A stretch of DNA of 41,545 nt from Verrucomicrobiota bacterium (lineage in GTDB: Bacteria; Verrucomicrobiota; Verrucomicrobiia; Chthoniobacterales; UBA10450): contig JBEEGX010000011.1 of the NCBI GenBank assembly GCA_041167105.1, positions 1 to 41,545 of the forward strand, given 5' to 3'. A program made the translations under genes and the position numbers. The notes beneath the pieces are model-generated. The model worked only from the letters and a program-made list of their open reading frames with translations, did not search any database and was not told where the DNA came from. Shown piece by piece: positions 1-41,367 of the stretch (position 1 is its first letter; every line of letters begins with the position of its first letter).

Positions 1-1047
1 AAGTTCGTGAAGAATTCCGGGCAGGCGCGAAATGTTCGATGGCATTTTGAAGTCGCGCGATGGCAATGCGTGAACGGCGGCGAGAAAAATCTTCCACGCC
101 GCGATTACGCAAATCCCCGGAACGAACGACAAGATCGACAACGTACGTTTGCGACGCGTCCAGAGAACCGCGGCCGCAGCGACGGTGAGAACGAACCACA
201 ACACGGCGCCTTCGCGTTTCATCCACGGAAGCGTCGCGCCGAGCACGAGGAAAAGTGCGAGCGAATCCCGCGAGTCGTCGCGTACAAATCTGAGCAGGTA
301 AAAAATTGTGGCGAGAAAAACCGCGGCCAGCGGGACGTCCGCGTAACCGACAGAAATTCCGCCGGGCGCGTTATGAATCGCAGGAACAAGCGGAAATAAA
401 ACGACAAGCGCCCAAGCGATCGCGCGATTGCCGCTGAGTTGCCCGGCCGCGAGGAGAAAGATCGACATCGCGGCGGCATACCAAATCGGGAAGATGAGCT
501 TGATCCAAAATTGATCTGCTTCGCCGAACCAGATGTAGAACCACGTTTCGGTCAGAGGCAGGAGCAATGGATATTCCGGGTGACTGAACCAGCGCGATGT
601 GTCGCTGAAGTACGACGATGGCAACGCGCCACCGTTGAGAAAGGCGAAACGCGCTTTCATTTCCCACACGGTCAATCCATCCCAGCCGAGCGTGTGTTGG
701 ATCGACAAGTACAAGATCGACATCAACTCCACGGCGAAGATCGCGATGAAAACTTTGTCGATTCGGCTGAGTAACAGCGAAGGAAGGTTTGGAAAATTTC
801 GCCAACGTCGCACGCCGACTGCGCCAAGCGTGGCACAGATGGCCGCGACGAAAATCTGTAGCGCGATACCGCGAACGAAAAAGCCGCAACACCAAAGGGC
901 GAGCGAAACGACGGCGGTGCCGAACAGCCATGCGAGCGCAAAATGTTCGATCCTGGTCAGGCGATTACGAACGAGGAGCGTTGTCATGCCGAATCCGGCC
1001 GCAAGGATTGTCGCGAAAGCGGCGATGAAGCCGACGAATGTAATCAT
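1..1047 (-). CDS. Polytopic integral membrane protein, partial (N-terminal ~349 aa; the C-terminus lies beyond the left window edge)
   Basis: Absent from the ORF track because no stop lies inside the window. The reverse frame (plus-strand triplets at 1,4,7...) has no TTA/CTA/TCA from 1 to 1047. Hand translation begins MITFVGFIAAFATILAAGFGMTTLLVRNRLTRIEHFALAWLFGTAVVSLALWCCGFFVRG and continues with many hydrophobic spans. The ATG at 1047 overlaps the TGA of the upstream ORF (ATGA). No family recognised; context suggests an EPS-related membrane protein. Confidence 0.6.
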   Translation of the reverse strand, partial: MITFVGFIAAFATILAAGFGMTTLLVRNRLTRIEHFALAWLFGTAVVSLALWCCGFFVRGIALQIFVAAICATLGAVGVRRWRNFPNLPSLLLSRIDKVFIAIFAVELMSILYLSIQHTLGWDGLTVWEMKARFAFLNGGALPSSYFSDTSRWFSHPEYPLLLPLTETWFYIWFGEADQFWIKLIFPIWYAAAMSIFLLAAGQLSGNRAIAWALVVLFPLVPAIHNAPGGISVGYADVPLAAVFLATIFYLLRFVRDDSRDSLALFLVLGATLPWMKREGAVLWFVLTVAAAAVLWTRRKRTLSILSFVPGICVIAAWKIFLAAVHALPSRDFKMPSNISRLPGILHEL

Positions 1048-1490
1048 TGTGAGCTGGCGGGATTGCGGAGCGTGAGATGCGGGCCGAGCGATTGCGCCTC
1101 GGGCACAGCGCGATCAAGCCCGCACATGTAGACCGCGAGATTCATCTGCGGAATCGGCTCGTTAGGCCGGATCTCGACCTTGTCGATCTTGCGCGGCCAC
1201 GTGAGATAACAGAGCGCCGAGTAAACGAAGTCGCAGCGCGCGTCGTCTTTTGGTGAAACGAAAACAGTGCGTTGTGTCGAGGCAATTCGCGCGGTCGCGT
1301 TGATGAGGTTCGCGCTCGGCTGGCGAATTTCCAGCAGCGGCGCGAGCAAGCTGTCGATTGACGCGGTGGGCGACGGCGAGACGGCGTGACCGCTGCGCAA
1401 GTTCTGCCAAAGTTTCGGCGCTGCGAGCACGGCGAAGATCGACAAGAGCAGCGCCCACGCGACGAAATAAATTTGGCGGAGCGTCTTCAA
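1044..1490 (-). CDS. Hypothetical protein with N-terminal signal/anchor helix
   Basis: 148-aa ORF (TTG start) beginning MKTLRQIYFVAWALLLSIFAVLAAPKL, followed by a soluble domain. Its start overlaps the upstream stop (TTGA, 1487-1490) and its stop overlaps the next start (ATGA, 1044-1047), so it sits inside the operon. No family recognised. Confidence 0.5.
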   Translation of the reverse strand: MKTLRQIYFVAWALLLSIFAVLAAPKLWQNLRSGHAVSPSPTASIDSLLAPLLEIRQPSANLINATARIASTQRTVFVSPKDDARCDFVYSALCYLTWPRKIDKVEIRPNEPIPQMNLAVYMCGLDRAVPEAQSLGPHLTLRNPASSQ

Positions 1491-2929
1491 CCGTTACGCA
1501 GACGATACAACCAGATGTCAGGGCCGAAAGGTGAACGCTCCACTGCGATGAACTCGAAAAGGTCGATGTCGATCTTGTCGTCGCGTCCGAGTTGCGGAAA
1601 AAATTTCACGGGCAACGAATCTTCCGTGCGGATGAAGACGAGATAATCGGCGCGTTGCTCGCGCAAGTATGCTGCAAACGCAGTCGCGTCCCCCGTCGCG
1701 GATGCGGGAGTTGCTTCAGATCGAAGAAAATGATCGGCAGGGAGTCGCGACAAAACGCGAACTGCAGGATCGTCGGCGAAGCATCGCGAGTCGCCGATGC
1801 GATCGACGAGCGCGGTAGCGATGCGTTGTTGCGCGCGTTGATCGCTAATCACTTTCGGAATGTTTGGGAATTGCCGAACGAAACCGTAGAGCAAGAAAAC
1901 AAGAGCGACTGCGGCAATGGGGCGGCGCAATATTTTTAACAGCCAGGCGAACAGCGGCAGGCCCAGCGTGAAGAAGACGAGACCGTAACGCGGCAGGAGA
2001 ACGGGCTGGCGTTTCGTGACGTAGGCGAGCGCAAAAAAAGCGAGCAGCGCGGCTGTGCACAAACTAACCGCGATGATTTCGCGCGAGCGGTGCGCCGCAC
2101 GCAAGATCGACATCGTCGCCGTAATGAAGATGGTGGCGAAGATGATCGGGTTCGCGCCGAGCAGGAAGTAATCAAGATCTTCGGCGACATCAGCGAAAGC
2201 GAAGCCGCGGCGCGTCGGATAAAAATCGAGGACGTTGTTTTGATAAGCGACGCGTTTCGCGAAGTAAGCGAATGGGTCACCGGTGGCCTGATGCGATATG
2301 CCAAACCAAACCAAGGGAGGCACAAGCAAGATCGACATCGTCATGAGTGAGACGCGGCGATGAAAGATGAATTGAAGCAGCGGTAATACGACGACGAAAA
2401 CCCACGCTTCCAGCCTAAGGAACTCCGCGAGAGCGGCGCAGATCACGGCGGCAATCCAGCGATCGCGCAGCGCGAACCAAATAGTGGCAAGGGAAAGACA
2501 GCCGAAAGGCACATCGGTCATGGCCGCGGCGGAGTAGAGCAGATGCAGCGGATTGAGGAGAACAAGCGCGAATGCGACGACTGCGAGTGGCGTGCTCTGC
2601 GTGAGGCGTTTTGTTAGGGCGAAAACGAGAACGCACGTTGTCGATCCAGCAAGTGCGGAAACTATTTTGCCAGACAGCAGCGGATCGTGAATGACGAGAT
2701 TCAGGATTGCAGCGGAGAATTGAAACAGCGGCAGCCAGAAACCGAAAAGATCGATGATTCGAAAATTGCCGCTGGAGATTTTCGCGCTCCAAGCGGCGAT
2801 CGTTTCGACATACGAGTAGCCGTCCTGTTCGGCATTCGGGAGAATAAACGCGGCGCAAAGTCGAACCGTGAGCGCGACGAGCCAAACGAGCAACCAGACG
2901 AAACGCGCGTCAGCGTTTGGTCGCGGCAT
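1487..2929 (-). CDS. GT-C-fold glycosyltransferase-like membrane protein (ArnT/PMT, family 39/83-like)
   Basis: The ORF track gives 1487..3091 (534 aa). The first 54 codons are R/P-rich and overlap the upstream gene, so I start at Met 2929 (MPRPNADARFVWLLVWLVALTVRL). It has about 10 or more hydrophobic segments followed by a soluble C-terminal domain, the typical architecture of lipid-linked-sugar-dependent GT-C enzymes. The start coordinate is uncertain. Confidence 0.6.
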   Translation of the reverse strand: MPRPNADARFVWLLVWLVALTVRLCAAFILPNAEQDGYSYVETIAAWSAKISSGNFRIIDLFGFWLPLFQFSAAILNLVIHDPLLSGKIVSALAGSTTCVLVFALTKRLTQSTPLAVVAFALVLLNPLHLLYSAAAMTDVPFGCLSLATIWFALRDRWIAAVICAALAEFLRLEAWVFVVVLPLLQFIFHRRVSLMTMSILLVPPLVWFGISHQATGDPFAYFAKRVAYQNNVLDFYPTRRGFAFADVAEDLDYFLLGANPIIFATIFITATMSILRAAHRSREIIAVSLCTAALLAFFALAYVTKRQPVLLPRYGLVFFTLGLPLFAWLLKILRRPIAAVALVFLLYGFVRQFPNIPKVISDQRAQQRIATALVDRIGDSRCFADDPAVRVLSRLPADHFLRSEATPASATGDATAFAAYLREQRADYLVFIRTEDSLPVKFFPQLGRDDKIDIDLFEFIAVERSPFGPDIWLYRLRNG

Positions 2930-5276
2930 TATGATAGGCGAGCCAGGCGTTCCAGGCGCGTTCCCAATTTTCTTTCGCGGCCCAGGATTGCGCTTCGAGA
3001 TAATGAAAATACTTCGGCGCATTCGGCCGGTCGCTGAAATGGCGCGCGGTGACGAGCGCGTCATCGGTGCGGCCAAGCTGGCGTTGCGCAAGATACAGCG
3101 CGTAGCCGACGGCGTAATTATCAGGGTTCGTCAGGTAACGTTGCTGGAGCTGGTCGAGCGGCGCGTTGTTGCTTTCGCGCGGCAGGGCGACGACGTCGCC
3201 AAAACGTTGCGCGAGATCGTAGGCGGCGTGGAAATCATTTTTGCTCGCGTAAAATTTTGCCATGCCGAACCAGGCATAGCTGAGCCAATCGCGGTGATTG
3301 TCGATCTTGCGCGCGAGCTCATCGAGATTTCCGCGCTCGGACCAAAGCGAAAAGAGGGCGAGCTTCTGCGGCTCGGTGAATTTTTCCAGGCTCGGATCTT
3401 TGCTCAACAATTTCCCGAGCGTGGCATCGAAGTCTTTTCCGTTCACGCGGCTGAGATACGCGAGGACGAGCTCGGGCTCGCCGAGTCCAATCTCCTCGAG
3501 CGTGCGCGCGAGCGGCGGACTGTGCATCAAGGCGCCGCTCAACATGTTCGCGTAAACATCGCCACGCGAAGCGCCGGCGCGACGCAGCGCCTCGTGCCAG
3601 GCGGTGGCCGCGAGTGTGGGCTCAATCGGCAACCACACGTTACCTTCGAGGAACGGCAATTCGTATCCATTCGGCTCGAGGAAACGGGCGCGGCGAAAAT
3701 CATCGAGCGCATCGCTCCATTTTTTCGCGCCGGCTTCGGCCATGGCGCGCGAGAAATAAAGTTGCCAATCGAGCGGCGACCACGGAATGGCTGCGCTCGT
3801 TAGGCGAATTGCTTCGCTGAAATCCTGGCCGCGCGTTTCCATTTGCGCGAGCTCTTTGGCGCTGGCAACGCCAACTGCTCCCGGCAACAACATTTTCGAG
3901 CGCGTCGCGATGACCCACGACATTCCGCTAATGACGAGAACGAGGCCGACGATTCGAAACAGAACTGAAACGCTCATGCTCGGCCGCAAATTGAGCGGCC
4001 GATGCAGCGACAGGCCGAGCAGAAACAAACCGGCAAAGGCAGTGCCGACGCGGTGCGCGCTCACGTCGATGAGTCCGTGCGCGGCAAAGATCAAAGCCGC
4101 GATGAGGGCGGCGAGACGAAAACGTTGATTGGTCCCCTCCTGCAACGGCAGCACTCGCCTGACAAGAAGCGCGGCGCCGATCACGATGAGTAGAACCGCC
4201 GGCCAGCCCATTTCCGACCAAAGCCAGAGCCAGTCGCTTTCCGGATGCAAGGCGCGCGTGTTGCCGACCGATTCCGTGCGAAACAAGGCGAAGACGAAAT
4301 CGAAATTACCGAGGCCGATGCCGCACCACGGCGAAGCACGGATGAGATCGAAGGTGTCGTGAAAGATCTTCCAGCGAAAATCGGCGGACAAGCCGCTGCC
4401 AGGCAATCCGCCAAAGTTGAAGCGCTCGAGGGTTTCGCCGCCTAACAACAGCACCGCCGTCATGAGCACAAGCAGGAATGAAACTGCGAGCGCGATGCGT
4501 TCGCTGGTGCGTTGACGCACGAGCACGGCGAAAATCCAAATGACGCTGCCACCGACGAGAATGCCGACGCCCGCGCGCGACCAGTTGAGGAGAATGGCTA
4601 CCACTAAGATCGACAATGCGATTATCCAGACGAACCAGCGTTTCCGGCCGCGACGAATATCGTCCTGACCACAAGCGAGCAGAACAATCGAGGTGATGCC
4701 TAACAAATCCGCGGTTTGGTTTTTGTTCGGGAACGGACCGAAGCCGCGCGCGTTCGTCCAAAGCGCGAAGGACCCGTGGCCGAGGTAGAGGAGAATGGAG
4801 ATGACGGCGAGAACAACCACGCCGACGACGAAGAGCCGCAATTGCGACCGCACCGCGCGAAGGTCGATCTCGTGCGTGGCCACGAGGTACAACCAGCTCA
4901 ACGCGCCAATCAGACTAACGAACGCACCGGCGGTGATCCACGGCTGCGGCGAAACCGTTCCCGGAAGCGCGATGTTGAAATCGTCCACTACTGCGGCGCG
5001 CCACTGCGGCCACGAAAACCAATGCGCCGGCAGGAACCCCATGAGCGCAACCGCCAGGAACAAAACGAAAACGATATTCGTCGTTAGGCCGAGCGAGAGC
5101 CGCGGCGGCCGCGCCAGCAGATACAAGCCCAGCAGTGTGAGCACGACGCCTTCGGCCCATTTCGTCGTCGCGCCGCCAAGAAAGCACGCCAGCACCGGCA
5201 AAAGCGGCAGAAAAATATTCGCGAGCCCGCTGGGGGCGGAACGGCGCTCGGGCTGTGCGGTGGGCTCGGACATCAC
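2910..5276 (-). CDS. O-antigen ligase/polymerase-like (Wzy_C-type) membrane protein fused to a C-terminal TPR-like helical domain
   Basis: 788-aa ORF. The N-terminal ~470 aa are polytopic, with a large loop (RTESVGNTRALHPESDWLWLWSEMGWP) typical of the O-antigen ligase/Wzy_C family. The C-terminal ~300 aa are soluble and helical-repeat-like (AYDLAQRFGD.., YALYLAQRQLGRTDDALV). Confidence 0.7.
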   Translation of the reverse strand: MMSEPTAQPERRSAPSGLANIFLPLLPVLACFLGGATTKWAEGVVLTLLGLYLLARPPRLSLGLTTNIVFVLFLAVALMGFLPAHWFSWPQWRAAVVDDFNIALPGTVSPQPWITAGAFVSLIGALSWLYLVATHEIDLRAVRSQLRLFVVGVVVLAVISILLYLGHGSFALWTNARGFGPFPNKNQTADLLGITSIVLLACGQDDIRRGRKRWFVWIIALSILVVAILLNWSRAGVGILVGGSVIWIFAVLVRQRTSERIALAVSFLLVLMTAVLLLGGETLERFNFGGLPGSGLSADFRWKIFHDTFDLIRASPWCGIGLGNFDFVFALFRTESVGNTRALHPESDWLWLWSEMGWPAVLLIVIGAALLVRRVLPLQEGTNQRFRLAALIAALIFAAHGLIDVSAHRVGTAFAGLFLLGLSLHRPLNLRPSMSVSVLFRIVGLVLVISGMSWVIATRSKMLLPGAVGVASAKELAQMETRGQDFSEAIRLTSAAIPWSPLDWQLYFSRAMAEAGAKKWSDALDDFRRARFLEPNGYELPFLEGNVWLPIEPTLAATAWHEALRRAGASRGDVYANMLSGALMHSPPLARTLEEIGLGEPELVLAYLSRVNGKDFDATLGKLLSKDPSLEKFTEPQKLALFSLWSERGNLDELARKIDNHRDWLSYAWFGMAKFYASKNDFHAAYDLAQRFGDVVALPRESNNAPLDQLQQRYLTNPDNYAVGYALYLAQRQLGRTDDALVTARHFSDRPNAPKYFHYLEAQSWAAKENWERAWNAWLAYHNAATKR

Positions 5277-5416: not shown

Positions 5417-6820
5417 ATGTTGACCCAACGCAAGGAAGGTCTCTACAGCGTCTTCCTCATCTGCCAAATCCTTATCGTGGCCGGACTGTTCTGGTTCGGC
5501 GTCTGGGTCTTGGTCACGTTTTATTCGCCGAGCGCCGATCTCACCTGGCGCCGCTACAGCATTTATTGCGGCATGCTCGTGCTCGGCATCGTGCTCGAAT
5601 CGCTCACCCGCGAAGGCGCGAAACATTATTTCGTCCAGAACGAACTCGTGCGGCAACACCGACTCAGCCTCCGGCAAACCATCGCCAGCGTCGGCATGCT
5701 GGTGCTTTATCTGGTCGCGACGAAAGACGCGTTTGTTTCGCGCGTGTTCTTTTTCAACTTCGTGCCGTGGTTGTATGTCGCGCTCCTCTTCTCGCATTAC
5801 TATCTGCCGCCGTTGCTCGCGCGCGGAATTTTTCGTCGTGAAGAAAAGACGCTGCTCATCGGCTCACCCCAGAAGGCCGAGCAACTTCAGAAATGGCTGC
5901 GGCGAAAATCGGAATTCGGTTTGCGCGCCGTCGGTTTAATTTGTGACGACAAGATCGACAACGTACCTCCGGGAGTTCCTTCGGTGCTTGGCCGCTCCGA
6001 AGATCTCGAGCGCGTTATTCGCGAGAACGGCATCGTCCAGGTCATCCTGCTCGAGTTTCCGCTCTTCACCGAAATCAATTGGCAGCTCATTCGCACCTGC
6101 GACGCGCTTGGCGTTCGCCTCCTCATCGTGAGCGATCTCGAGGAAAAACTTCGCCATTCCGTCACGCATTTCGAGGATGACGGCCACCGCTTCATCGGTT
6201 TGCGCGAGGAGCCGCTCGAAAATCCGGTCAACCGTTTCCTCAAACGCGCGATCGATTTCGCCATCGCCGTTCCCATCATGTTGATCGTGTTCCCGGTCGC
6301 CATGATCCTCGTCTGGCTCGCGCAACGATTGCAATCGCCCGGCCCGCTCTTTCACATGCAAACACGTGCCGGCATGCAAAATCGACAATTCAAAATCTAC
6401 AAGTTCCGCACCATGCACACGGGTAACGGCGAGATCGCGCGCCAGGCTTCGAGCAACGACGAGCGCGTGTATTTCGTTGGCAAATGGTTTCGCAAGCTCA
6501 GCATCGATGAGATTCCACAATTTTGGAACGTGCTTCGCGGCGACATGAGCATCGTCGGCCCGCGTCCGCACCTGGTCGAGCACAACAACCAGTTCGCGCA
6601 ATTACTCGCGAATTATCACGTGCGCACATTCGTTAAGCCCGGCATCACCGGCCTGGCGCAAGTGCGCGGTTATCGCGGCGAAGCGCACAACAGCTCGGAC
6701 ATTGAAAAACGCGTCGCCTGCGACATCGAGTATCTCGAGAACTGGAACTTGTCGCTCGAGTTCGCCATCATCGTGCGCACGTTCGCGCAGGTTATTTTTC
6801 CGCCGCGGACGGCCTATTGA
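5417..6820 (+). CDS. Exopolysaccharide polyprenyl (undecaprenyl)-phosphate glycosylphosphotransferase, WbaP/EpsB-type initiating enzyme
   Basis: 467 aa. N-terminal TM helices precede the C-terminal bacterial sugar transferase domain, with hallmark strings FKIYKFRTM, DEIPQFWNVLRGDMSIVGPRP and KPGITGLAQV. Confidence 0.9.
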   Translation: MLTQRKEGLYSVFLICQILIVAGLFWFGVWVLVTFYSPSADLTWRRYSIYCGMLVLGIVLESLTREGAKHYFVQNELVRQHRLSLRQTIASVGMLVLYLVATKDAFVSRVFFFNFVPWLYVALLFSHYYLPPLLARGIFRREEKTLLIGSPQKAEQLQKWLRRKSEFGLRAVGLICDDKIDNVPPGVPSVLGRSEDLERVIRENGIVQVILLEFPLFTEINWQLIRTCDALGVRLLIVSDLEEKLRHSVTHFEDDGHRFIGLREEPLENPVNRFLKRAIDFAIAVPIMLIVFPVAMILVWLAQRLQSPGPLFHMQTRAGMQNRQFKIYKFRTMHTGNGEIARQASSNDERVYFVGKWFRKLSIDEIPQFWNVLRGDMSIVGPRPHLVEHNNQFAQLLANYHVRTFVKPGITGLAQVRGYRGEAHNSSDIEKRVACDIEYLENWNLSLEFAIIVRTFAQVIFPPRTAY

Positions 6821-8085
6821 TTGGATGGACACGCGTCGTCGTGTCCCAAACTTTTCAGCTTCGCAAAAAAATCGGCTAACAATTTGCCGCGATCGTAACG
6901 CGCAACATAAGCGCGCCCATTTTTGCCCCACTCGCGCAGTGATTGCCTGCCCGCCGTAGCCTTGGCGGAGGCGGGTCGATCTTGCGCAAGATCGCGAAAG
7001 GTCTGCGCAAGTTTCGCGGCATCACCTGGCAATACATTCGTGCCGCAATTTCCATCGCGCACCGCTTTCGCCAGCGCGCTCTCTTCATCCGCCACCGTCA
7101 CCACCGGACAGCCGTGCGCCAGCGTCATCAAAATCTTGCTCGGAAAAAACGCATTGCCCGAGCCGCTTTGCTGCGTGATCAACGAAATGTCCGCGTCCAC
7201 CAGCAGCTCTTTGTATCCACGGTCCGATTGCAGAGGCAACATCGTCACGTTTTGCAGATGTCGATCTTGCATGGATCGCTCGAGCGACGCTCGCGCCGCG
7301 CCGTCACCGCAAATGACGATGCGAATATTCGGCTGGTCGCGCAGATGCTCAGCGGCATCGATCAAAATTTTGAGGCCCTGTTTCACTCCGAGATTCCCAG
7401 AGTAAACCGCGAGAAAATCAGCGTCGGTCATGCGATGACGCGCGCGAAAGTTTCCACGCGCCGGCAATTCATCGGGAACGACCACGCCGTCGGGAAACAA
7501 AAGAATTTTTTTATCCGGCACACCTTTACGCCGGAACGCTTCGAGCATTTCATTGCTCAATCCGCCGACCATGGTCGCGTGTTTGTAAGCGAACGCTTCC
7601 AGCCAATACAGCGCGCGTGTGAACCAACCGGCGCGCACCATGCCGAGACCGATGGCGGCGTCCGGTTGTAAATCTTTCACCAGAAAAACAATTGGCGCGC
7701 GTTTGAAGAGCGTGACAAACCACGCAGCCATGCCTAACAACAGCGGCGGCGAGACGACGACGTAAACATCGGGACGCGGCAACGTCAGTGCGCGCAGCGT
7801 TGAAGTCAGGACAAACGTCGCTTCGTGAATGATGCGCTTCCAAGCCGAGACACGCGCGGGCACGAAATGCCAGCAGCGATAGACCCACACGTCGTTGATC
7901 ACATCCGTGCGAAATAGACGATGTCGATCTTGCGCGGATTTTTTCCACATCGGGTAATACGCGAACGTCGTCACCATCTCGACATCGACATCTTTTTTGG
8001 CGAGAAACTCGCAGAGCGCGACGTTATGCGGCGCGATGCCCGCCACTTCGGGCGCGTAATTGATTCCCCAAACGACAACGCGCAT
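6814..8085 (-). CDS. Glycosyltransferase family 4 (WcaI-like)
   Basis: 423 aa. The N-terminus MRVVVWGINYAPEVAGIAPHN resembles WcaI-type GT4 enzymes and the C-terminal half is a GT-B Rossmann domain. The 3' end overlaps the convergent gene by 7 nt. Confidence 0.85.
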   Translation of the reverse strand: MRVVVWGINYAPEVAGIAPHNVALCEFLAKKDVDVEMVTTFAYYPMWKKSAQDRHRLFRTDVINDVWVYRCWHFVPARVSAWKRIIHEATFVLTSTLRALTLPRPDVYVVVSPPLLLGMAAWFVTLFKRAPIVFLVKDLQPDAAIGLGMVRAGWFTRALYWLEAFAYKHATMVGGLSNEMLEAFRRKGVPDKKILLFPDGVVVPDELPARGNFRARHRMTDADFLAVYSGNLGVKQGLKILIDAAEHLRDQPNIRIVICGDGAARASLERSMQDRHLQNVTMLPLQSDRGYKELLVDADISLITQQSGSGNAFFPSKILMTLAHGCPVVTVADEESALAKAVRDGNCGTNVLPGDAAKLAQTFRDLAQDRPASAKATAGRQSLREWGKNGRAYVARYDRGKLLADFFAKLKSLGHDDACPSNQ

Positions 8086-8088: not shown

Positions 8089-8931
8089 TTAGTCGCGCGT
8101 CCGCTGCCGCAGCTCGAACGTCTTTACCACGGAAAGGAATTCATACATTGCGTGCAGCCGCGCGAAATAATAGCCGTGGCGGCCGTCGAGAAATCCTTTT
8201 TGCCAGACGTAAACGTAAAGAAAGCGAAGCAGCGGGCGAAACGGCAAACGTTGCGCAAGTGATTTCCAACGCCGGCGAAGATCGACATCTTCGTGTGAAA
8301 GGTTTCCGCTCAGTTCTCCGGCGACAGCCACCCGCGCCTCCCAGTTTGAGTAGCGATTATGTTTTTCGACGAACACCTCCACCGTCGGAAACGCGTAATG
8401 CGTCATTTCGCATTTCAAGCGGCCGGTCGCGCCGCGCACGGTGACGTGCTCGTGCACTTCGTTGTCGCCGCTCCCGGTTTCAGCGCCCGTAATTTTCTCG
8501 TAGCGGCCTAACGCATGCCGAAATAATCGCAGATTCCAATTCGGGTAATACGCGTGCCGAAGTTTGCGCCCGAGAAAAATGAAATGCCGGTTGATCCAGT
8601 AACCAGCCATCGCAAGATCGACAATCGCCTTTGCGATTTCGTCGCGCGCTTCCGGCGGCAAAACTTCGTCCGCATCGAGAATGAGCACCCACTCATGTTT
8701 GAACGGCAGTTTCTCCAGCGCCCAATTCTTTTTCTTCGGCCACGTGCCGTTGAAATGGAACTGCACCACCTTCGCACCGTGTTGCTCCGCGATTTGGGCT
8801 GACGCATCCGTGCTCTGCGAATCGACCACGAAAATTTCATCCGCCCATGCGATGGAGTCGAGACACCGCGACAAGTTCTCCGCTTCGTTCTTGATCGGGA
8901 CGATGACCGACAGCGGCACGCGCTCGCTCAT
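8089..8931 (-). CDS. Glycosyltransferase family 2
   Basis: Contains the GT-A signature VPLSVIVPIKNEAENLSRCLDSIAWADEIFVVDSQSTDAS and an ILDADE (DxD) motif. The ORF track extends to 8952; I prefer the ATG at 8931 (MSERVPLSVIV), which forms an ATGA overlap with the upstream stop at 8928. Confidence 0.85.
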   Translation of the reverse strand: MSERVPLSVIVPIKNEAENLSRCLDSIAWADEIFVVDSQSTDASAQIAEQHGAKVVQFHFNGTWPKKKNWALEKLPFKHEWVLILDADEVLPPEARDEIAKAIVDLAMAGYWINRHFIFLGRKLRHAYYPNWNLRLFRHALGRYEKITGAETGSGDNEVHEHVTVRGATGRLKCEMTHYAFPTVEVFVEKHNRYSNWEARVAVAGELSGNLSHEDVDLRRRWKSLAQRLPFRPLLRFLYVYVWQKGFLDGRHGYYFARLHAMYEFLSVVKTFELRQRTRD

Positions 8932-32074: not shown

Positions 32075-32102
32075 TTGTCGATCTTGTTCGTTGTCGATCT
32101 TG
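32074..32102 (+). repeat. Tandem direct pair of the dispersed motif: GTTGTCGATCTTG-TTC-GTTGTCGATCTTG (16-bp period)
   Basis: Read directly from sequence. Two identical 13-mers at 32074-32086 and 32090-32102. The first base is the G of the kinase TAG stop, and the pair ends 18 nt before the ilvA start. Confidence 0.95.
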
Positions 32103-32119
32103 CGCCAAGTTGACGGCGC

Positions 32120-33365: not shown

Positions 33366-36230
33366 ATGCATGCGCGACAGGAATACAAGATCGACCTCGA
33401 CTCCTTTGCGCGGCGTCATATCGGCCCTAACGAATCTGAAGTTGGCGCAATGTTGCGCGAACTCGATTTCGACAATCTCGATGCACTGATCGACGCGACC
33501 GTTCCGAAAAATATCCGCTTAGATCGACAACTCGATTTGCCGGAAGCGAAATCGGAAGCACAGGCGCTGTCGGAGCTGCGCACGATTTCGAAGAAGAACA
33601 AAGTCGCGAAGAATTTTATCGGCGCTGGTTACTCCGATTCGATCACGCCGCCGGTGATTCAGCGAAACATTCTCGAGAACCCCGGTTGGTATACTGCCTA
33701 CACACCGTATCAGGCCGAGCTCGCGCAAGGCCGGCTCGAAGCGCTGCTCAATTTCCAAACCATGATCACCGATCTCACAGCGATGGAGATCGCGAATGCG
33801 TCGATGCTCGATGAAGCCACTTCCGCAGCGGAGGCGATGGCGCTCTGTCATGCGGCGGTGCCGGGCCGGAAAACATTTTTGGTTTCGGACGATTGCCATC
33901 CGCAAACGATCGAGGTCGTGACTACGCGCGCGAAGCCGCTCGGCATTCAGATTAAGATCGACCATCACGTTAACTTCGATTTTGACGAGGATGTTTTTGG
34001 CGCGCTCCTGCAATTTCCCGCTACTGATGGTGAGGTTCACGATTACTCCGCGCTCGTTAGGCCGGCGCACGAGGCCGGCGCGCTCGTGGTGGTGGCGGCC
34101 GATATTCTCGCGCTCACTCTCTTCAAACCGCCGGGCGAGTTCGATGTCGATGTTGTCGTCGGCAGCACGCAGCGCTTCGGGGTTCCGTTAGGCTACGGCG
34201 GGCCACACGCGGGATTTTTTGCCACGCGCGACAAATACAAACGTCACATGCCCGGCCGGCTCGTCGGCGTTTCGCATGATGCTGAAGGTCGCCCGGGCTA
34301 TCGACTCGCATTGCAAACGCGCGAGCAACATATCCGTCGCGACAAAGCCACCAGTAATATTTGCACCGCGCAAGTTTTGCTCGCGGTCATCGCCTCGATG
34401 TATGCGGTCTATCACGGACCGCGCGGCTTGCGCGCTATCGCCGAACGCCTGGATGAAATGACGCGGCGCCTTTGCGTTTCTCTCGAGGACGTTGGCTTCG
34501 GTGTCGCGCACGAATTTTTCTTCGACACGCTTCATGTCGCGCTCGGCCATCAGGGAAACGCGGAGCACTTTCTTGCGCGAGCCGCGTCTGTCGGGATGAA
34601 TTTGCGCAAACTCGGCGAGAACACCGTCGGCATCTCGATCGACGAAACGACGACCGAAGCAGACCTCGCGCACCTGTGCGAAGTGTTTGAGGCGAAGATC
34701 GACAGTTCGTCCGATTACGAATCTTTCCGCGATCCGCCGTCGCTCCTGCGCACTTCCGATTTCCTAACGCACCCGATCTTCAATACGCATCACACCGAGA
34801 CCGAAATGCTGCGTTACATCAAGCGGCTCGAGTCGCGCGATTTGTCGCTCTGTCATTCCATGATTCCGCTCGGCTCATGCACGATGAAACTGAACGCGAC
34901 CGCGGAAATGTTTCCGCTTTCGTGGCCGGAATTTTCGAAGCTACATCCGTTTGCGCCTAACGAACAGGCGACCGGTTACATCGACATGTGCAAGCAGCTG
35001 GAAGATTGGCTCGCGGAAATCACCGGCTTCGCTGCCGTATCGTTGCAGCCGAATGCGGGATCGCAAGGTGAATACGCGGGCTTGCTCGCGATCCGCGAAT
35101 ATCACAATTCGCGCGGTGAACCGCATCGCAACGTTTGTCTCATTCCGAATTCGGCGCACGGAACGAATCCGGCCAGCGCGGTCATGGCCGGTCTGCGCGT
35201 CGTCGCGGTCGCGACGTTGAAAGATGGAGATGTCGATCTTGCCGATCTTCGCGCGAAAGCCGACGCGCACGCGCGCGATCTCGCCGCCATCATGATCACA
35301 TATCCGAGCACGCACGGCGTGTTCGAGCCGACCATTCGCGAAATCTGCGAAATCGTGCACGCGCACGGCGGCCAGGTTTATCTCGACGGCGCGAACATGA
35401 ACGCACAGGTCGGACTCTGCCGTCCCGGCGATTACGGCGCCGATGTTTGCCATTTGAATTTGCACAAGACGTTTTGCATTCCGCACGGCGGCGGCGGACC
35501 CGGCGTCGGACCGATCGGTGTCGCGCCACATCTCGTTCCGTTTTTGCCGGCGGCGGCGACGTTGAATGACGATGTCGATCTTACCAACCGCGTCGGGCCA
35601 GTCGCGCAAGCGCCCTATGGCAGCGCGAGCATTCTCACGATCTCGTGGATGTATATCCGCATGATGGGACCGATCGGCCTAACGGATGCGAGCAAGATCG
35701 CGATTCTGAATGCGAACTACATCGCGAAACGACTCGACCCGCATTTTCCGGTCTTGTTCAAAGGCAAACGCGGCCTCGTCGCGCATGAGTGCATTGTCGA
35801 TCTTCGCCAATTTAAAAGTATCGGCATCGAAGTCGAAGACGTGGCGAAACGTTTGATGGATTACGGATTTCACGCGCCGACAGTTTCGTTTCCGGTTGCC
35901 GGCACGATGATGATCGAGCCGACCGAGAGCGAATCGAAAGATGAGCTCGACCGTTTTTGCGATGCGATGATTTCCATTCGAAAGGAAATCGAAGCCGTCG
36001 CGAACGGCACGCAAGATCGACATAACAATTTGCTCAAAAACGCGCCGCACACCACGCGACAGATCGCCGCGGAAAAATGGGAACATCCCTACACGCGCGA
36101 GCAAGCGGCGTTTCCCGCGCCGTGGACACGCGAGCACAAATTCTGGCCGAGCGTCGCGCGCATCGACAACGTCTACGGCGATCGGAATTTATTCTGTTCC
36201 TGTCCGCCGGTCGAAGGCTTCGAAGACTGA
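33366..36230 (+). CDS. gcvP: Glycine dehydrogenase (decarboxylating), glycine cleavage system P protein, single-chain form
   Basis: 954 aa, collinear with single-chain GcvP. Conserved strings include [115 protein letters not shown] and [13 protein letters not shown]. Confidence 0.95.
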
Positions 36231-36871
36231 CAAGCGGCGGCGGCGAGCAGCTCGCGGACTTCGTCGTCCGTCGTCTGCGCAAAGTTTTCATAGAACTGGC
36301 CGACGGCGTGAAAATATTCCGGCGCGGTCGCGCAGATTGTTTCGTCGGCGAGTGATTCGAGTTCGCGGCATGTTTCGGGCGCGCCGACTGGGACAGCCAC
36401 AATAATTTTCGCGGCGCCTTCCTGCCGCAACGCCGTCACGGCCGCACGCATAGTCGCGCCGGTGGCGAGGCCGTCATCGACCAGAATGACAGTGCGGCCG
36501 CGCACGTCGAGCGGCGGACGATCGTCGCGATAAAGTTTTTCGCGGCGCGCGACCTCGGCTTGTTCGCGGACAGTCACGGCATCAATGATCTCCATCGCGT
36601 TCGGCAACGCACGGACGACGTCGTCGTTCAAAACGCGCACGCCGCCCGAAGCGATGGCGCCGGCGGCGAGTTCTTCGAAACCGGGCACGCCGAGTTTGCG
36701 AACGATGAAGACGTCGAGCGGCGCGCGGAGGCGTTTCGCAATTTCGTAGGCGACGGGAACACCGCCGCGCGGCAGGCCGAGCACGATGACGTCGTCGCGC
36801 CCGAAATAGTTATTGTCGATCTTGCCGGCTAAAATTTCGCCGGCTTCATGTCGATCTTGAAAGATGCGCAT
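36173..36871 (-). CDS. Phosphoribosyltransferase-family protein
   Basis: 232 aa. N-terminus [15 protein letters not shown]...[16 protein letters not shown] and PRPP-binding loop [18 protein letters not shown]. The 3' end overlaps the gcvP 3' end by 58 nt (convergent). Confidence 0.8.
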
Positions 36872-36957: not shown

Positions 36958-38487
36958 CTACCCTTCGGCTTCGGCGGCGAGCTCGGGCGCGCTGCGCACA
37001 CGCTTCGGCACCAAACGCAACGCGGTGCCGCTCGCTTGCTGTTCGTCACCGGCGGCGCCGGCTTCGTGATACTCGGCGTCCTGATTCACTTCCCAAAGAT
37101 CGTAAAGCTTGCTGTCGGCCAAAATATTTTCGACGCACAACATCGCCGTCATCATTGCGTGATCCTGGTTGTTGTATTTATGCATGCCGTTGCGGCCGAC
37201 GAGATGCAAATTCGGGTAGCGCGTCTCGAGCTCCCGCCGAACCGTCTCGACGTGCTTGGCGTAATCATCATCGTAAACCGGATACGCTTTCTTTTGCCTA
37301 ACGACGGTGCCGTCGAGCACATCGCCTTCTTTGGCGAGGCCGATCTCAATCAGTTCGCGCGTCGCGAGCTTGATCAGCTCTTCATCTTTCGAATCCCAAA
37401 CGCCATCGTGTTCGAAACAAAAATATTCGAGTCCGTAACAAGCTTTGTCCGGGTCGGGCACCATCTCGGGCGACCACGAACGGAAATTTTGGACACGACC
37501 GACTTTGACTCTCGGGTCATGGATGTAGATCCAGTTATCGTCGAATGCGTCGCGGTTCTTCACGATCAACATCACGGTGATGAAATCGCGGTACTTGAGC
37601 GACTCGGCGGCGCGTTTGGCTTCGTCGGAAACTTCCGGCCGAATCCCGCGGACGAGCTCGCGCATGGGCGCGGATGAAATGACGTGCTCGGCTTGAAGCG
37701 TCTGGACATTACCTTGTCGATCTTGCAATGACACGGTCCAGCTTTCGTTAGGCGCATCGTAATTAAGGCCGACGACTTTGTGGCCCATTTCGATATTGCC
37801 GCCCATGGCTTTGGTTTTTTCCGCGCAAACTTCCCACATCATGCCCGGACCTTTGCGCGGATAACGGAAGGAATTGATCAGTGTCTTGATCACTTTGCTG
37901 CGGTCGCCGTTGTAACGCTGCGGGATGAGCGCGTTCTTGATCGCGCTGCCTAACGACAGCCCTTTGATGCGCTGCGCCGCCCAATCGGCCGAGATTTCCT
38001 TGCAGCTCATGCCCCAGACTTTTTCGGTGTAAGTCTTGAAGAAGGTGTTGAAGAGACGTTTGCCGAATTGATTGCTCACCCAATCCTCGAAATTTCGCGG
38101 ATCGCGCACCGGGAATGCTTTCGCCTTCAGATACGACAGCACGCACAATGTCGATCTTACAACGCCGAGCTTGAACAGCGCTTCGAAGGCGCGCAGTGGA
38201 TAGGCGAAAAATTTACCGTTGTAATAAATGCGCGACGAACGCGGCCGCAGCAGCATGTCGTCAGGCAATATCTCCGTCCAAAAATCTTCGACTGCTTTCG
38301 ATTTAGAAAAGAACCGGTGACCGCCGATGTCGAAGTGAAAACCCTTGTAGGTGGCGGTGCGCGAAATTCCGCCGACGTAAACCGGATCGGCCTCGAGCAC
38401 GGTGACGTCGACACCATTCTTCGCGAGCAGATAGGCGGCGGTGAGACCCGCCGGACCGGCTCCGATAATAGCTACCTTCGTTTTCAT
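36958..38487 (-). CDS. NAD(P)/FAD-dependent oxidoreductase (amine-oxidase / UDP-galactopyranose-mutase-like fold)
   Basis: 509 aa. N-terminal dinucleotide-binding motif KVAIIGAGPAGLTAAYLLAKNGVDVTVLEADPVYVGGISRT; C-terminal LHLVGRNGMHKYNNQDHAM. Substrate unknown. Confidence 0.75.
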   Translation of the reverse strand: MKTKVAIIGAGPAGLTAAYLLAKNGVDVTVLEADPVYVGGISRTATYKGFHFDIGGHRFFSKSKAVEDFWTEILPDDMLLRPRSSRIYYNGKFFAYPLRAFEALFKLGVVRSTLCVLSYLKAKAFPVRDPRNFEDWVSNQFGKRLFNTFFKTYTEKVWGMSCKEISADWAAQRIKGLSLGSAIKNALIPQRYNGDRSKVIKTLINSFRYPRKGPGMMWEVCAEKTKAMGGNIEMGHKVVGLNYDAPNESWTVSLQDRQGNVQTLQAEHVISSAPMRELVRGIRPEVSDEAKRAAESLKYRDFITVMLIVKNRDAFDDNWIYIHDPRVKVGRVQNFRSWSPEMVPDPDKACYGLEYFCFEHDGVWDSKDEELIKLATRELIEIGLAKEGDVLDGTVVRQKKAYPVYDDDYAKHVETVRRELETRYPNLHLVGRNGMHKYNNQDHAMMTAMLCVENILADSKLYDLWEVNQDAEYHEAGAAGDEQQASGTALRLVPKRVRSAPELAAEAEG

Positions 38488-38491: not shown

Positions 38492-39790
38492 TTAAGCGAC
38501 CCAGTTTGCCCGGGTAAAATTCCACACGTACCAACCCTGTACGATTAACCCCGCGGCGCACGCCAGCACCACAGTCGCCGTCGCCAATGCGCGCACTGGC
38601 AGCGGAGGGAGGCGAAGTTGACGCAGAAAGTGCAGGAACGCCAGCACGATTAAAGTATGAGAACAAAACTGATAGCGCAGCATGCTCTCCATCTCGACGC
38701 AGGCCACGCCGCTGATGGAGATGTAATATATAATAGCTCCGGCAGCGTAGAGACCGATGCGTTGGCGCCAATTCGTCTCGCTCCGCAATGCCGCGACGAT
38801 TTCGACAATCGCGATGATGATGAACGCGACCATCGTCAGCGAAGTCGCAAGCTGACTGGCTTCGACCGGATTATTCAGCGCGGGTACGAGCCAGCGATAA
38901 CTTGAAGGACGAAAGATCGCCAGGTAATCGGGCACGATTCCCCAACCGGCCGATTGCGTGAGCATGTACATGTCCCAATGCCCCCAGCGTATGAGGCAAT
39001 AAGTGAAGAACGCGCCGGCGCCGAATGTCGCTAAGATCGACATCGTCATTACCGACAAATGCTGACGCAGCGGAAACAATCGCTTTTGCAAAATCGATTG
39101 CATGACTGGAATGCCCGCGCACGGAATACCGACGATGCGCGTGCCGGACATAATGATGCCGTGCAGAACAGCGAACACTTTCGCGTAGCGCGATTCCGAC
39201 GTGCTCCAATAAAGAAAGCCGAGCAGCCCCATCAGGAACATCGATTCGGAATAACCCGCGATAAGAAAGAACGCGGCCGGATGGGACAAGATCGACAATG
39301 CGCCTAACGAGCGCAGTGTCGGCGAAAGGTTCCAGCGTTCGCAAAAGAGAAAGAAATAACTCCAGAAACCGAACGCGGCGATTTGCGCGGTAATGAGCAA
39401 CCCGCTGTCGGTTTCAATTCGAAAAACTTTATGGAGCAGCGCCGCGGTCGCGGGATAAGCGGGGAAGAATGCGACGTTGGAAACTTCCATCACCTTGTGA
39501 TTGATCGGCGGAACGATGGTTTCGTAGCCGCGATCGATGATGTTCATGAACCAGTAGCTGTCGTGCTGGTTCAAGGTGGAATAGCGCCAGGAGAGCGGAC
39601 CTTCCGGCGCGAGGAGCAGCACGGCGATGACGATTTGCGCGATGGTGACGACGAACGCCCAGCTCAACGGAGTGATTGTCGATCTTGCCGCGGTCATTCC
39701 AGGCGAAGGCAGAGCCGCCGAGGAGATACGAAAGCTTTCGCCGAAGCAAGAACTTGTCGGTTGATCGAGTGTCGCCGTGTTCGCTTGCAT
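38492..39790 (-). CDS. Polytopic membrane protein, GT-C/PIG-V-like mannosyltransferase candidate
   Basis: 432 aa with about 9-11 hydrophobic segments. The N-terminal loop DSYWFMNIIDRGYE...FFPAYPA resembles the DUF/PIG-V-type GT-C family. Assignment is tentative. Confidence 0.5.
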   Translation of the reverse strand: MQANTATLDQPTSSCFGESFRISSAALPSPGMTAARSTITPLSWAFVVTIAQIVIAVLLLAPEGPLSWRYSTLNQHDSYWFMNIIDRGYETIVPPINHKVMEVSNVAFFPAYPATAALLHKVFRIETDSGLLITAQIAAFGFWSYFFLFCERWNLSPTLRSLGALSILSHPAAFFLIAGYSESMFLMGLLGFLYWSTSESRYAKVFAVLHGIIMSGTRIVGIPCAGIPVMQSILQKRLFPLRQHLSVMTMSILATFGAGAFFTYCLIRWGHWDMYMLTQSAGWGIVPDYLAIFRPSSYRWLVPALNNPVEASQLATSLTMVAFIIIAIVEIVAALRSETNWRQRIGLYAAGAIIYYISISGVACVEMESMLRYQFCSHTLIVLAFLHFLRQLRLPPLPVRALATATVVLACAAGLIVQGWYVWNFTRANWVA

Positions 39791-39902: not shown

Positions 39903-39918
39903 AGTAAAAGATCGACAA

Positions 39919-41367
39919 TCAGGCCGCGGCTTCTTCGGCCGGCGCGAGCGCGCGATACGCTTGCTCGTAACGCGCGGCCGATGCGTCCCAGGAAAAATTT
40001 CGCGCCATGGCGCGTTCACAGAGTGTGTGCCAGAGCGTGCGATCGTTAAAGACTTCGCGCGCGCGTTTGATCGCGTCCCAGAACGCTTCGGTCGAGTAAT
40101 CGAAAAACAAAAACCCGTAGCCGCGATCAAGTGTCGGGTCGTAGTCCTCGATGATTTCTTGAATGCCCCCCGCGGCGCGCGCGACCGGGAGCGCGGCATA
40201 CTTGAGCGAATACATCGCCATCAAACCTGACGGCTCGAAGCGCGACGGGATGAGGCTGATGTCGATGGCGGCTTCGATGAGATGCGCCAGTTGTTCGTCG
40301 TAATGGCGTTGATAAGAAAACTTCGTTGGGAATTTTTTCGCGGCGACCGTGAGCGCGGTTTCAAAGGCCGGATCGCCCTCGCCTATTATAATAAGGCGCA
40401 CGTCGTCGCTGAGGAGGCGGTCGAGCAGCGGCACGAGAATGTCGAAGCCTTTTTCTTTCACGACGCGCGTGACCATGCCGAAGACCGGGCCGTGCGGCGC
40501 GGGCGCGAGCTGGAGATGGTTGAGGAGCGCGTCGCGGCAAAGTTGTTTACCCCAGAGCGAGTCGGCGTCGTAGAGCGCGGGCAGGTACTGATCAGTCGTG
40601 GGATTCCACCGGGTATAATCGGCGCCATGCAAGATCGACATAAACTTGTGCGCGTTCTCGCGCAGGACGCCGTCGAGACCAGCGCCGCCTTCCGGGGTCA
40701 TGATCTCATGTTTGTAGTGCTCGCTCACGGTAGTGAGTTTGTCGGCGAAGAGGATTCCGCCTTTGAGGAAATTGAGCCGCCCGAAAAATTCGATGCCGTG
40801 GAGCGAGAAGAAGCGTTGATGCAGATTCGTTAGGTCGAAATCGAGTCCCCAGAAACTTCCCTGCTCTTCGACGTGGTGAATCGTGAGCACGGTCGAGAAG
40901 GGCAGATGATATGCCCTAACGAACGCCGGCACGAGCGCCGCCGCCCAATCGTGGCAATGCAAAATCTGCACGGAGGGCGTGAGCCGGCGCGCGAGCTCGA
41001 GCGCGGCCTTCGTGAAAAAAATGAAGCGCGCCGCGTTGTCTTCGTACGCTTCGCCGTGCTCGCCGTAGATTCCTTGTCGATCAAAGAACTCGTCGCAGCG
41101 AATCAGGAATAACTGCACGCCGGTCGCGGTGCGACTTTCGAGATACTCGGCCACATAAGTTTTCTCGCCGACGCGCACATCGACCGTGATACCGGTGTCT
41201 TCCTCTTTGAATTCCGTATTCTCGCGAATCTCGCGATAGAACGGCAGCGCGATGCTGACTTCATGGCCGCGGTCGCGCAACTGCTGCGGCAACGCGTTCA
41301 TCACATCGATGAGCGCGCCGGCGCGTTGCAACGGCGGCCCTTCGGCGCTGATCATTAAGATGCGCAT
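39919..41367 (-). CDS. glgA: Glycogen synthase (ADP-glucose type, GT5)
   Basis: N-terminus MRILMISAEGPPLQRAGALIDVMNALPQQLRDRGHEV, matching the KxGGL-region position. C-terminal segment SLIPSRFEPSGLMAMYSLKYAALPVARAAGGIQEII is typical of GlgA. The ORF track extends to TTG 41403; the ATG at 41367 aligns better with GlgA N-termini. Confidence 0.9.
   Translation of the reverse strand: MRILMISAEGPPLQRAGALIDVMNALPQQLRDRGHEVSIALPFYREIRENTEFKEEDTGITVDVRVGEKTYVAEYLESRTATGVQLFLIRCDEFFDRQGIYGEHGEAYEDNAARFIFFTKAALELARRLTPSVQILHCHDWAAALVPAFVRAYHLPFSTVLTIHHVEEQGSFWGLDFDLTNLHQRFFSLHGIEFFGRLNFLKGGILFADKLTTVSEHYKHEIMTPEGGAGLDGVLRENAHKFMSILHGADYTRWNPTTDQYLPALYDADSLWGKQLCRDALLNHLQLAPAPHGPVFGMVTRVVKEKGFDILVPLLDRLLSDDVRLIIIGEGDPAFETALTVAAKKFPTKFSYQRHYDEQLAHLIEAAIDISLIPSRFEPSGLMAMYSLKYAALPVARAAGGIQEIIEDYDPTLDRGYGFLFFDYSTEAFWDAIKRAREVFNDRTLWHTLCERAMARNFSWDASAARYEQAYRALAPAEEAAA

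Follow-up and report, generated by a model that had tools for sequence, protein, structure and literature searches.

The locus and its host

The stretch of DNA analysed here, 41,545 nucleotides of contig JBEEGX010000011.1 (the window, always at its full length), carries 70 exact copies of the non-palindromic ten-nucleotide word AAGATCGACA, about one per 600 bases. The abundance of the word is extreme, exact, orientation-neutral and independent of reading frame. The word is restricted to certain lineages, its sites are made by point substitution and are denser between genes than within them, and a sister lineage carries a different word.

From 1 to 28695 the window is nearly all one minus-strand cluster for polysaccharide biosynthesis and export, whose members include Wzy_C, an initiating sugar transferase, about ten glycosyltransferases (GTs), Poly_export, a BcsQ-like ATPase and a porin-like protein. 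Six of the open reading frames (ORFs), 1-1113, 1044-1490, 13428-14915, 18922-19959, 22229-23260 and 23050-24366, are without a Pfam match. The methyltransferase-like ORFs of the window lie within the polysaccharide cluster and match small-molecule methyltransferase families. The remainder is a housekeeping part that includes gcvP (glycine dehydrogenase).

No species representative has a glycine dehydrogenase more than 80% identical to the one encoded by gcvP of the window, and the nearest relatives of the window protein belong to metagenome-assembled Chthoniobacterales and to Candidatus Udaeobacter (Verrucomicrobiota). Judging from this gene, the host is an uncultured soil Chthoniobacterales bacterium related to Candidatus Udaeobacter. 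A protein identical to the window gcvP is encoded on a soil metagenome contig of the Joint Genome Institute (JGI), and a look-up of the longest-ORF product of 39919-41403 gave no record. An independent JGI contig with an identical gcvP (L081) stops about 42 bp past the right end of the window (41545), which points to a break common to both assemblies, perhaps at a repeat, immediately to the right of the window.

Copy number, excess and extent of the word

Both strands of the window were scanned for the exact 10-mer by pattern search, which found 38 copies on the plus and 32 on the minus strand (1.7 per kb). The same numbers had been given in a first-pass annotation made from the letters alone. 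Three of its coordinates were wrong (10724, 22304 and 39043 should be 10714, 22305 and 39033) and all others were right. The copies are given below as matches to AAGATCGACA, with their strand and their context in the ORF list.

131..140, +, antisense in ORF 1-1113(-)
458..467, +, antisense in ORF 1-1113(-)
713..722, +, antisense in ORF 1-1113(-)
1181..1190, -, sense in ORF 1044-1490(-)
1435..1444, +, antisense in ORF 1044-1490(-)
1567..1576, -, sense in PMT-like ORF 1487-3091(-)
2103..2112, +, antisense in PMT-like ORF 1487-3091(-)
2328..2337, +, antisense in PMT-like ORF 1487-3091(-)
3299..3308, -, sense in Wzy_C ORF 2910-5276(-)
4606..4615, +, antisense in Wzy_C ORF 2910-5276(-)
5951..5960, +, sense in sugar transferase ORF 5417-6820(+)
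7259..7268, -, sense in GT4 ORF 6814-8085(-)
7922..7931, -, sense in GT4 ORF 6814-8085(-)
8278..8287, +, antisense in GT2 ORF 8089-8952(-)
8614..8623, +, antisense in GT2 ORF 8089-8952(-)
9086..9095, -, sense in hexapeptide transferase ORF 8928-9686(-)
9794..9803, +, antisense in ORF 9491-10120(-)
10216..10225, +, antisense in GT4 ORF 10117-11205(-)
10714..10723, -, sense in GT4 ORF 10117-11205(-)
11064..11073, -, sense in GT4 ORF 10117-11205(-)
11209..11218, +, antisense in the 3' end of GT4 ORF 11202-12428(-)
11565..11574, +, antisense in GT4 ORF 11202-12428(-)
12168..12177, +, antisense in GT4 ORF 11202-12428(-)
12218..12227, -, sense in GT4 ORF 11202-12428(-)
12854..12863, +, antisense in GT4 ORF 12323-13639(-)
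12949..12958, -, sense in GT4 ORF 12323-13639(-)
15026..15035, -, sense in GT1 ORF 14917-16107(-)
15340..15349, +, antisense in GT1 ORF 14917-16107(-)
16127..16136, +, antisense in GT1 ORF 16100-17095(-)
16637..16646, -, sense in GT1 ORF 16100-17095(-)
17500..17509, +, antisense in GT2 ORF 17092-17931(-)
17961..17970, +, antisense in methyltransferase ORF 17912-18925(-)
18692..18701, +, antisense in methyltransferase ORF 17912-18925(-)
19264..19273, +, antisense in ORF 18922-19959(-)
19691..19700, +, antisense in ORF 18922-19959(-)
20394..20403, +, antisense in GT ORF 19926-22250(-)
21705..21714, +, antisense in GT ORF 19926-22250(-)
22305..22314, -, sense in ORF 22229-23260(-)
22781..22790, +, antisense in ORF 22229-23260(-)
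22939..22948, -, sense in ORF 22229-23260(-)
23663..23672, -, sense in ORF 23050-24366(-), divergent pair with 23692
23692..23701, +, antisense in ORF 23050-24366(-), divergent pair with 23663
24077..24086, -, sense in ORF 23050-24366(-)
24440..24449, -, intergenic
26260..26269, +, antisense in BcsQ/AAA_31 ATPase ORF 24472-26616(-)
26713..26722, +, antisense in Poly_export ORF 26620-27333(-)
29011..29020, -, antisense in ORF 28953-30164(+)
30196..30205, -, intergenic, first half of a doublet
30212..30221, -, intergenic, second half of the doublet
30673..30682, +, sense in hybrid histidine kinase ORF 30389-32074(+)
31395..31404, +, sense in histidine kinase ORF 30389-32074(+), doublet with 31410
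31410..31419, +, sense in histidine kinase ORF 30389-32074(+), doublet with 31395
31855..31864, -, antisense in histidine kinase ORF 30389-32074(+)
32076..32085, -, intergenic, first half of a doublet, starting 2 nt past a stop codon
32092..32101, -, intergenic, second half of the doublet
32623..32632, -, antisense in threonine dehydratase ORF 32120-33331(+)
34695..34704, +, sense in gcvP 33366-36230(+)
35231..35240, -, antisense in gcvP, private to the window lineage; relatives have ATCGATCTG
35573..35582, -, antisense in gcvP, common to the window and L001
35795..35804, -, antisense in gcvP, common to the window, L001, L002 and L003
36013..36022, +, sense in gcvP
36814..36823, -, sense in phosphoribosyltransferase (PRTase) ORF 36173-36871(-)
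36849..36858, -, sense in PRTase ORF 36173-36871(-)
37715..37724, -, sense in amine oxidase ORF 36958-38487(-)
38149..38158, -, sense in amine oxidase ORF 36958-38487(-)
39033..39042, +, antisense in ORF 38492-39790(-)
39288..39297, +, antisense in ORF 38492-39790(-)
39677..39686, -, sense in ORF 38492-39790(-)
39908..39917, +, intergenic
40631..40640, +, antisense in glgA-like ORF 39919-41403(-)

Hardly any copies are expected by chance. At equal base frequencies the expectation is 0.08, as had been correctly calculated before, and an order-3 Markov model of the window gives 0.3. Dinucleotide-preserving shuffles (n = 100) yielded a mean of 0.19 copies and a maximum of 1, so the excess is about 370-fold. 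In a codon-aware control, synonymous codons were shuffled within each of 32 ORFs, keeping the proteins and the codon usage of each gene. The mean rose to 9.5 copies (sd 1.6, maximum 14), leaving the ratio of observed to expected far from one (70 versus 9.5). Since 6 of the 9.5 are intergenic copies that were left unshuffled, about 64 coding copies stand against about 3.5 expected.

It is the exact word that is maintained, as first proposed, with 70 perfect copies in the window versus 22 relatives with one mismatch, most of these altered at either end of the word. All 15 one-mismatch positions reported earlier are genuine, although the total of about 15 was too low. A recount of the extended forms again gave 33 copies of GCAAGATCGACA and nine of GCGCAAGATCGACA. 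When the sites of the window were pooled with those of 41 motif-rich metagenome loci (n = 390), the base after the 10-mer was A or T in 363 of 390, and the full word is therefore the 11-mer AAGATCGACAW, that is AAGATCGACA(A/T). The same set shows weak flanking preferences (G at -2, C at -1, not A at +11, C at +14) and no detectable information beyond about 3 nt on either side; the copies thus lack shared flanking homology. Outside the word, GATC and TCGA are neither enriched nor avoided in the window relative to Markov expectation, and CGATCG shows no enrichment (42 observed versus 73 expected).

Placement, orientation and spacing

Most copies (64 of 70) lie inside ORFs. The six outside maximal ORFs fall in 2.9% of the window, which makes the intergenic density about three-fold higher (P = 0.015). 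Five of the six frames are used, reading KID, QDR/EDR or RST in sense and VDL or SIL/SIF in antisense; the sole unused frame would read Cys-Arg-Ser. As the excess survives synonymous shuffling and is spread over five frames, the word is a property of the DNA duplex, not of RNA or protein. It is found in accessory exopolysaccharide genes and core genes alike, as the first-pass annotation had observed, at 1.6 per kb in the polysaccharide cluster (1-28.7 kb) and 1.9 per kb in the housekeeping part.

Plus and minus copies are intermixed over the full length of the window. Over 33 contigs the two orientations number 170 and 184, with no heterogeneity between contigs (chi-square P = 0.33) and no correlation with GC skew (rho = 0.09). 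The absence of skew, of heterogeneity and of a link to GC skew excludes a polarity like that of Chi or of the FtsK orienting polar sequences (KOPS), bearing out the view taken in the first-pass annotation from the 38:32 ratio in the window.

Spacing between copies is near random and slightly even (coefficient of variation (CV) 0.83, about the 5th percentile of random placements), and the largest gap is 2.3 kb versus 2.8 kb expected. At short range, direct, head-to-tail pairs at 15 or 16 bp, a feature that the first-pass annotation did not mention, occur three times in the window versus 0.12 expected (P = 2.5e-4):

30196..30221, -, head-to-tail doublet with 16-bp spacing, 32 nt 3' of the stop codon of ORF 28953-30164
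31395..31419, +, head-to-tail doublet with 15-bp spacing, within the histidine kinase ORF
32076..32101, -, head-to-tail doublet with 16-bp spacing, flanked by the stop at 32074 and by a hairpin-like site at 32101-32120

Two of the three lie shortly after stop codons. Inverted pairs of the word are few and have no preferred spacing.

Metagenomes were scanned for direct pairs 11-41 bp apart. As the loci were chosen through such pairs, counts of pairs under 42 bp in them are meaningful only relative to one another. Among about 135 listed pairs (loci L082-L201), 48 are spaced by 15 bp and 14 by 16 bp, while other multiples of three are far rarer among the matches listed (12 bp, 2; 18 bp, 2; 21 bp, 7). 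The 15- and 16-bp doublets come from many different loci and have differing spacers.

Origin and turnover of sites

About 15 kb of the window could be aligned to L002-L005, relatives with 72-74% nucleotide identity. In the motif-less relatives none of the aligned window sites is intact (0/21, 0/23 and 0/16), and the sites match at 6.3-7.1 of 10 positions, compared with 7.2-7.3 for random 10-mers. Matching no better than random 10-mers, the sites must have been derived in the window lineage. In a codon alignment of gcvP, for instance, the relatives read GAT ATC GAT CTG where the window reads GAT GTC GAT CTT, and the substitution of GATATCGATCTG by GATGTCGATCTT is an example of site creation. 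Most sites align to their orthologues without gaps; two in gcvP adjoin alignment gaps.

Between word-bearing lineages a minority of sites is conserved. From the window to L002, 5 of 22 sites are intact, versus a background of 6.8% (P = 0.014), and 17 are absent; from L002 to the window, 5 of 8 are intact (P = 7e-5). In L003, 22 of 23 window sites are absent and a single one is intact. Some gcvP sites are common to all four motif-bearing sequences. Amino-acid identity to the relatives is 46-66% at codons overlapped by the word versus 74-77% over all aligned codons; either the word settles where proteins are tolerant or else it bends them. Most sites are thus derived point substitutions at poorly conserved residues, and a minority is common to several lineages. 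Findlay and Redfield are said to have described in 2009 the same pattern of weak conservation for the uptake signal sequence (USS).

Distribution among relatives, metagenomes and viruses

The word is not confined to this locus, being carried also by relatives and by soil metagenome loci. Its density in the corresponding loci of relatives is as follows.

Window: 70 copies in 41.5 kb, 1.7 per kb
L001: 5 copies in 5 kb, 1.0 per kb
L002: 14 copies in 22.9 kb (0.02 expected), 0.6 per kb
L003: 6 copies in 22.8 kb, 0.26 per kb
L004-L008: 0 or 1 copy per 17.5-23 kb locus, about 0 per kb

By gcvP, L004-L008 are about as near to the window as L001-L003, and in L004-L006 the gene order of the aligned stretch is the same as in the window. 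In the gcvP tree the motif-bearing lineages may or may not form a single clade. In L003, four of the six copies lie inside gcvP (L003:10562-12427) and none in the 10 kb upstream, a pattern that may represent decay of the word in this lineage except where a conserved gene has kept it. As no identity anomaly was seen, import of the L003 gcvP was rejected as a cause of this clustering.

The scan for direct pairs in metagenomes returned at least 120 stretches. Among the matches listed, 41 loci from many independent soil samples are rich in the word, with 320 copies in 326 kb (158 plus, 162 minus). Among them are parts of large contigs (1.6 Mb, 663 kb, 398 kb and 266 kb) that a single sample yielded; these parts have 1.0-2.6 copies per kb. 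With the word masked, the tetranucleotide signature of the metagenome loci correlates with that of the window at a median r of 0.93, equal to that of Udaeobacter-like genome loci. The word is thus a trait of a lineage, not of a locus. This agrees with its description in the first-pass annotation as a genome signature rather than a mobile element, as do the five frames, the origin by substitution without flanking homology and the presence in relatives and soil metagenomes. The same pair scan over 2.9 million viral contigs returned 38 stretches with essentially no copies beyond the pair itself, reflecting either depletion or phages of these hosts being unsampled.

One motif-rich contig, L146, has 2.4 copies per kb over its first 5.9 kb and then 3 copies in 8.4 kb (L146:5876-14275). 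The latter part, a candidate for foreign DNA though of near-normal GC content, encodes large secreted proteins (BNR repeat; CarboxypepD_reg with dockerin; subtilase with dockerin). The same contig has a selenocysteine tRNA gene at 1456-1545 on the minus strand (Rfam RF01852, 64.9 bits).

A second word in a sister clade

A sister clade within Chthoniobacterales (L017, L018 and L022) carries another hyper-abundant word, the 9-mer GCCTAACGA, in both orientations and at 0.6-1.2 copies per kb:

L017: 13 copies of GCCTAACGA in 22.9 kb
L018: 15 copies of GCCTAACGA in 12.6 kb
L022: 22 copies of GCCTAACGA in 22.8 kb versus 0.1 expected (for example L022:3698-22235)

Some of its sites are orthologous across the three loci, and it contains neither GATC nor TCGA. 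The other Udaeobacter-like genomes examined have no outstanding word.

Apparent hyper-abundant 10-mers in L011, L042, L083, L107 and L155 were traced to local tandem repeats; in L011 (4903-4926 and 5732-5762) and L042 (4374-4410), arrays of the heptamers (AATCGAA)n and (GAACATC)n explain the top 10-mers. In L014, a longer repeat beginning GTCATCCCGAG(C/G)GCAG(C/T)GAGGG has five dispersed copies (9736, 9836, 15915, 18061 and 18163) and looks like an element of the repetitive extragenic palindrome (REP) or miniature inverted-repeat transposable element (MITE) type, separate from the word.

Discussion

The known words that most resemble AAGATCGACAW are the DNA uptake sequence (DUS) of Neisseriaceae (core GCCGTCTGAA) and the USS of Pasteurellaceae (core AAGTGCGGT). 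These too are non-palindromic, 9-12 nt long and present about once per kb. Like the word described here, they occur equally in both orientations, lie within genes in several frames with tolerable peptides favoured, are denser between genes, have exact copies far in excess of near-misses and occupy sites at weakly conserved residues. In those families related lineages have their own variants of the word; here the sister word is unrelated in sequence and not a dialect, and other close relatives have no such word. Our word behaves like DUS and USS, yet it is not a member of either family, as it is unrelated to GCCGTCTGAA or AAGTGCGGT, denser at 1.7 per kb and hosted by another phylum. As of a 2025 survey, proven uptake sequences (DUES) are limited to two proteobacterial families, Neisseriaceae and Pasteurellaceae, and about half of their copies lie in terminators, mostly as inverted repeats.

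The other close parallel is the highly iterated palindrome HIP1 (GCGATCGC) of cyanobacteria, whose over-representation is 15- to 300-fold, within and between ORFs. Both words exceed expectation by at least two orders of magnitude, occur within and between ORFs in all usable frames, contain a GATCG core and differ between lineages, some of which are without the word. HIP1, however, is a palindromic octamer accompanied by orphan methyltransferases for GATC and CGATCG and is conserved across its phylum, whereas the word studied here is an asymmetric 11-mer, found in few lineages of one order and with fast site turnover. The function of HIP1 is debated; recent reports describe enhanced transformation, and the preference has been proposed to act just after uptake. 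The first-pass annotation had named DUS, USS and HIP1 as resemblances, and these are still the right short list, with the caveat that DUS and USS form inverted-repeat terminators and the present word does not.

We suggest that AAGATCGACAW may be a transformation-linked, genome-wide self-recognition word spread by molecular drive, as with DUS and USS; we would give this reading only a little less than an even chance. A DNA-binding component of the natural-transformation pathway would prefer double-stranded DNA carrying the word in either orientation. The component might be a receptor at the cell surface or in the periplasm, or might act at a step just after uptake. Word-bearing fragments from relatives would then be taken up and recombined more often, and mutations creating the word would be transmitted preferentially until it occurred about every 600 bp wherever the protein tolerates it. 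We infer both that the transformation machinery would be the reader and that drive, not selection, would maintain the sites. Uptake-type drive is preferred since it is the only established process yielding this combination of facts. Among non-palindromic words only one known kind has an excess this large and this exact, and the present word matches it. The absence of word-rich contigs from the viral set, against at least 120 stretches from metagenomes, is also counted in favour. HIP1, the one other hyper-abundant word, has now been linked to transformation, which may be counted in favour of an uptake function, and the different word of the sister lineage would parallel the lineage-specific words of uptake systems.

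Several observations weigh against an uptake function. The distribution of the word is patchy among close relatives. The sister word GCCTAACGA is unlike AAGATCGACAW in sequence and not a dialect differing at 1-4 nt. No copy of the word lies in a terminator stem and terminator-like sites are at chance level; in place of the inverted-repeat terminator copies of DUS and USS there are direct doublets at 15-16 bp. To our knowledge, natural transformation has not been demonstrated in Verrucomicrobiota. Searches by phmmer with Escherichia coli ComEC (YcaI), DprA (Smf), HofQ, HofM, HofC, HofB and PpdD found no match among 9128 ORFs (at least 70 aa, six frames) from the window and 153 loci (32 Verrucomicrobiota genome loci and L081-L201), nor did a regular expression for prepilin N-terminal regions, both results being uninformative as the set consists of genome fragments only. 

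In the literature, the only full-text matches to the word or to its complement were primers and other unrelated text, and searches that paired Udaeobacter or Verrucomicrobia with uptake sequences, competence or pili gave no relevant paper.

A different possibility, unrelated to uptake, is that an abundant chromosomal protein binds the word to organise the nucleoid or its domains, and that selection on chromosome structure maintains the sites. A role in chromosome structure has been proposed for HIP1 (Xu et al. 2018), whose sites show conservation and periodicity. Such a protein could account for the slightly even spacing of the copies (CV 0.83), for the conservation of some sites above background (5 of 8 L002 sites in the window, P = 7e-5) and for the doublets at 15-16 bp, which make up 62 of about 135 listed metagenome pairs and suggest a defined protein-binding geometry. 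Most sites, however, are unconserved even between word-bearing lineages (17 of 22 for L002 and 22 of 23 for L003), and the existence of equally near relatives with the same gene order and wholly without the word is hard to square with an essential structural role. Nor are we aware of any nucleoid protein that binds a strictly defined 11-mer at thousands of places per genome, and on balance we consider this explanation unlikely.

Drive without uptake would result if the cell had a sequence-specific bias of its own, through repair or gene conversion of near-matches or through methylation at GATC or TCGA. The creation of sites by point substitution at near-matches would be expected from such a bias, as would the high ratio of exact to one-mismatch copies (70:22), and the patchiness among relatives fits gain and loss of a single enzyme gene. 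The word does hold overlapping GATC and TCGA, and HIP1 function is methylation-dependent. Yet GATC and TCGA are unremarkable outside the word, GCCTAACGA has neither, and the methyltransferase-like ORFs of the window match small-molecule families and belong to the polysaccharide cluster. The repair biases that are known, very-short-patch repair among them, recognise contexts of 4-5 nt and yield only modest enrichments, and no enzyme of the required 10-11 nt specificity is known to us. These points make an intracellular bias still harder to credit, and we regard it as improbable.

Two further explanations are effectively refuted, each retaining a negligible probability. Chi and the translocase guides KOPS and architecture imparting sequences (AIMS) are, like this word, short over-represented chromosomal self markers for DNA-processing machines; over-represented words are often of this type, and HIP1 has been likened to Chi, but a polar guide on one strand, whether a recombination hotspot or a translocase guide, is defined by a strand skew that is absent here (38:32 and 170:184), and these replication-skewed words are shorter, at 5-8 nt, and far less enriched. 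That the copies are a by-product (remnants of a tiny mobile element, a peptide motif, codon usage or an assembly artefact) could be suggested by the two gcvP sites that adjoin alignment gaps and by some close pairs in unrelated metagenome and viral contigs that are protein or tandem repeats, but is countered by the lack of similarity past about 3 nt of flank, the use of five frames on both strands, the persistence of the excess through synonymous shuffling, the gap-free alignment of most sites and the recovery of the word in assemblies from many independent studies. REP elements, bacterial interspersed mosaic elements and MITEs likewise have many dispersed copies per genome, though they are longer, palindromic, extragenic and inserted, unlike a word with 64 of 70 copies in ORFs that was made by substitution and has no flanking homology. 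The word is not a member of HIP1, Chi, KOPS or REP.

Returning to the uptake function, it is possible, if on balance somewhat doubtful, that some Udaeobacter-like soil lineages carry out sequence-specific natural transformation, each with a private word (AAGATCGACAW in one, GCCTAACGA in another). If so, uptake sequences would for the first time be known from beyond the Proteobacteria, and with a distinct anatomy: copies doubled head to tail at 15-16 bp and not paired in terminators. Their turnover would be fast enough for the words to serve as species barriers that limit gene flow in soil. With a third system, unrelated to the others and in another phylum, genome-wide self-marking words would be shown to be a recurrent solution and not an oddity. 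As some relatives have the word, some another word and some none, comparative genomics could name the receptor or enzyme, and the origin of such words, a long-standing question, is made directly testable by these relatives. The word would also serve as a sequence tag for binning and tracking these lineages in metagenomes, and gene flow in very abundant, hard-to-study soil bacteria could be approached directly through it.

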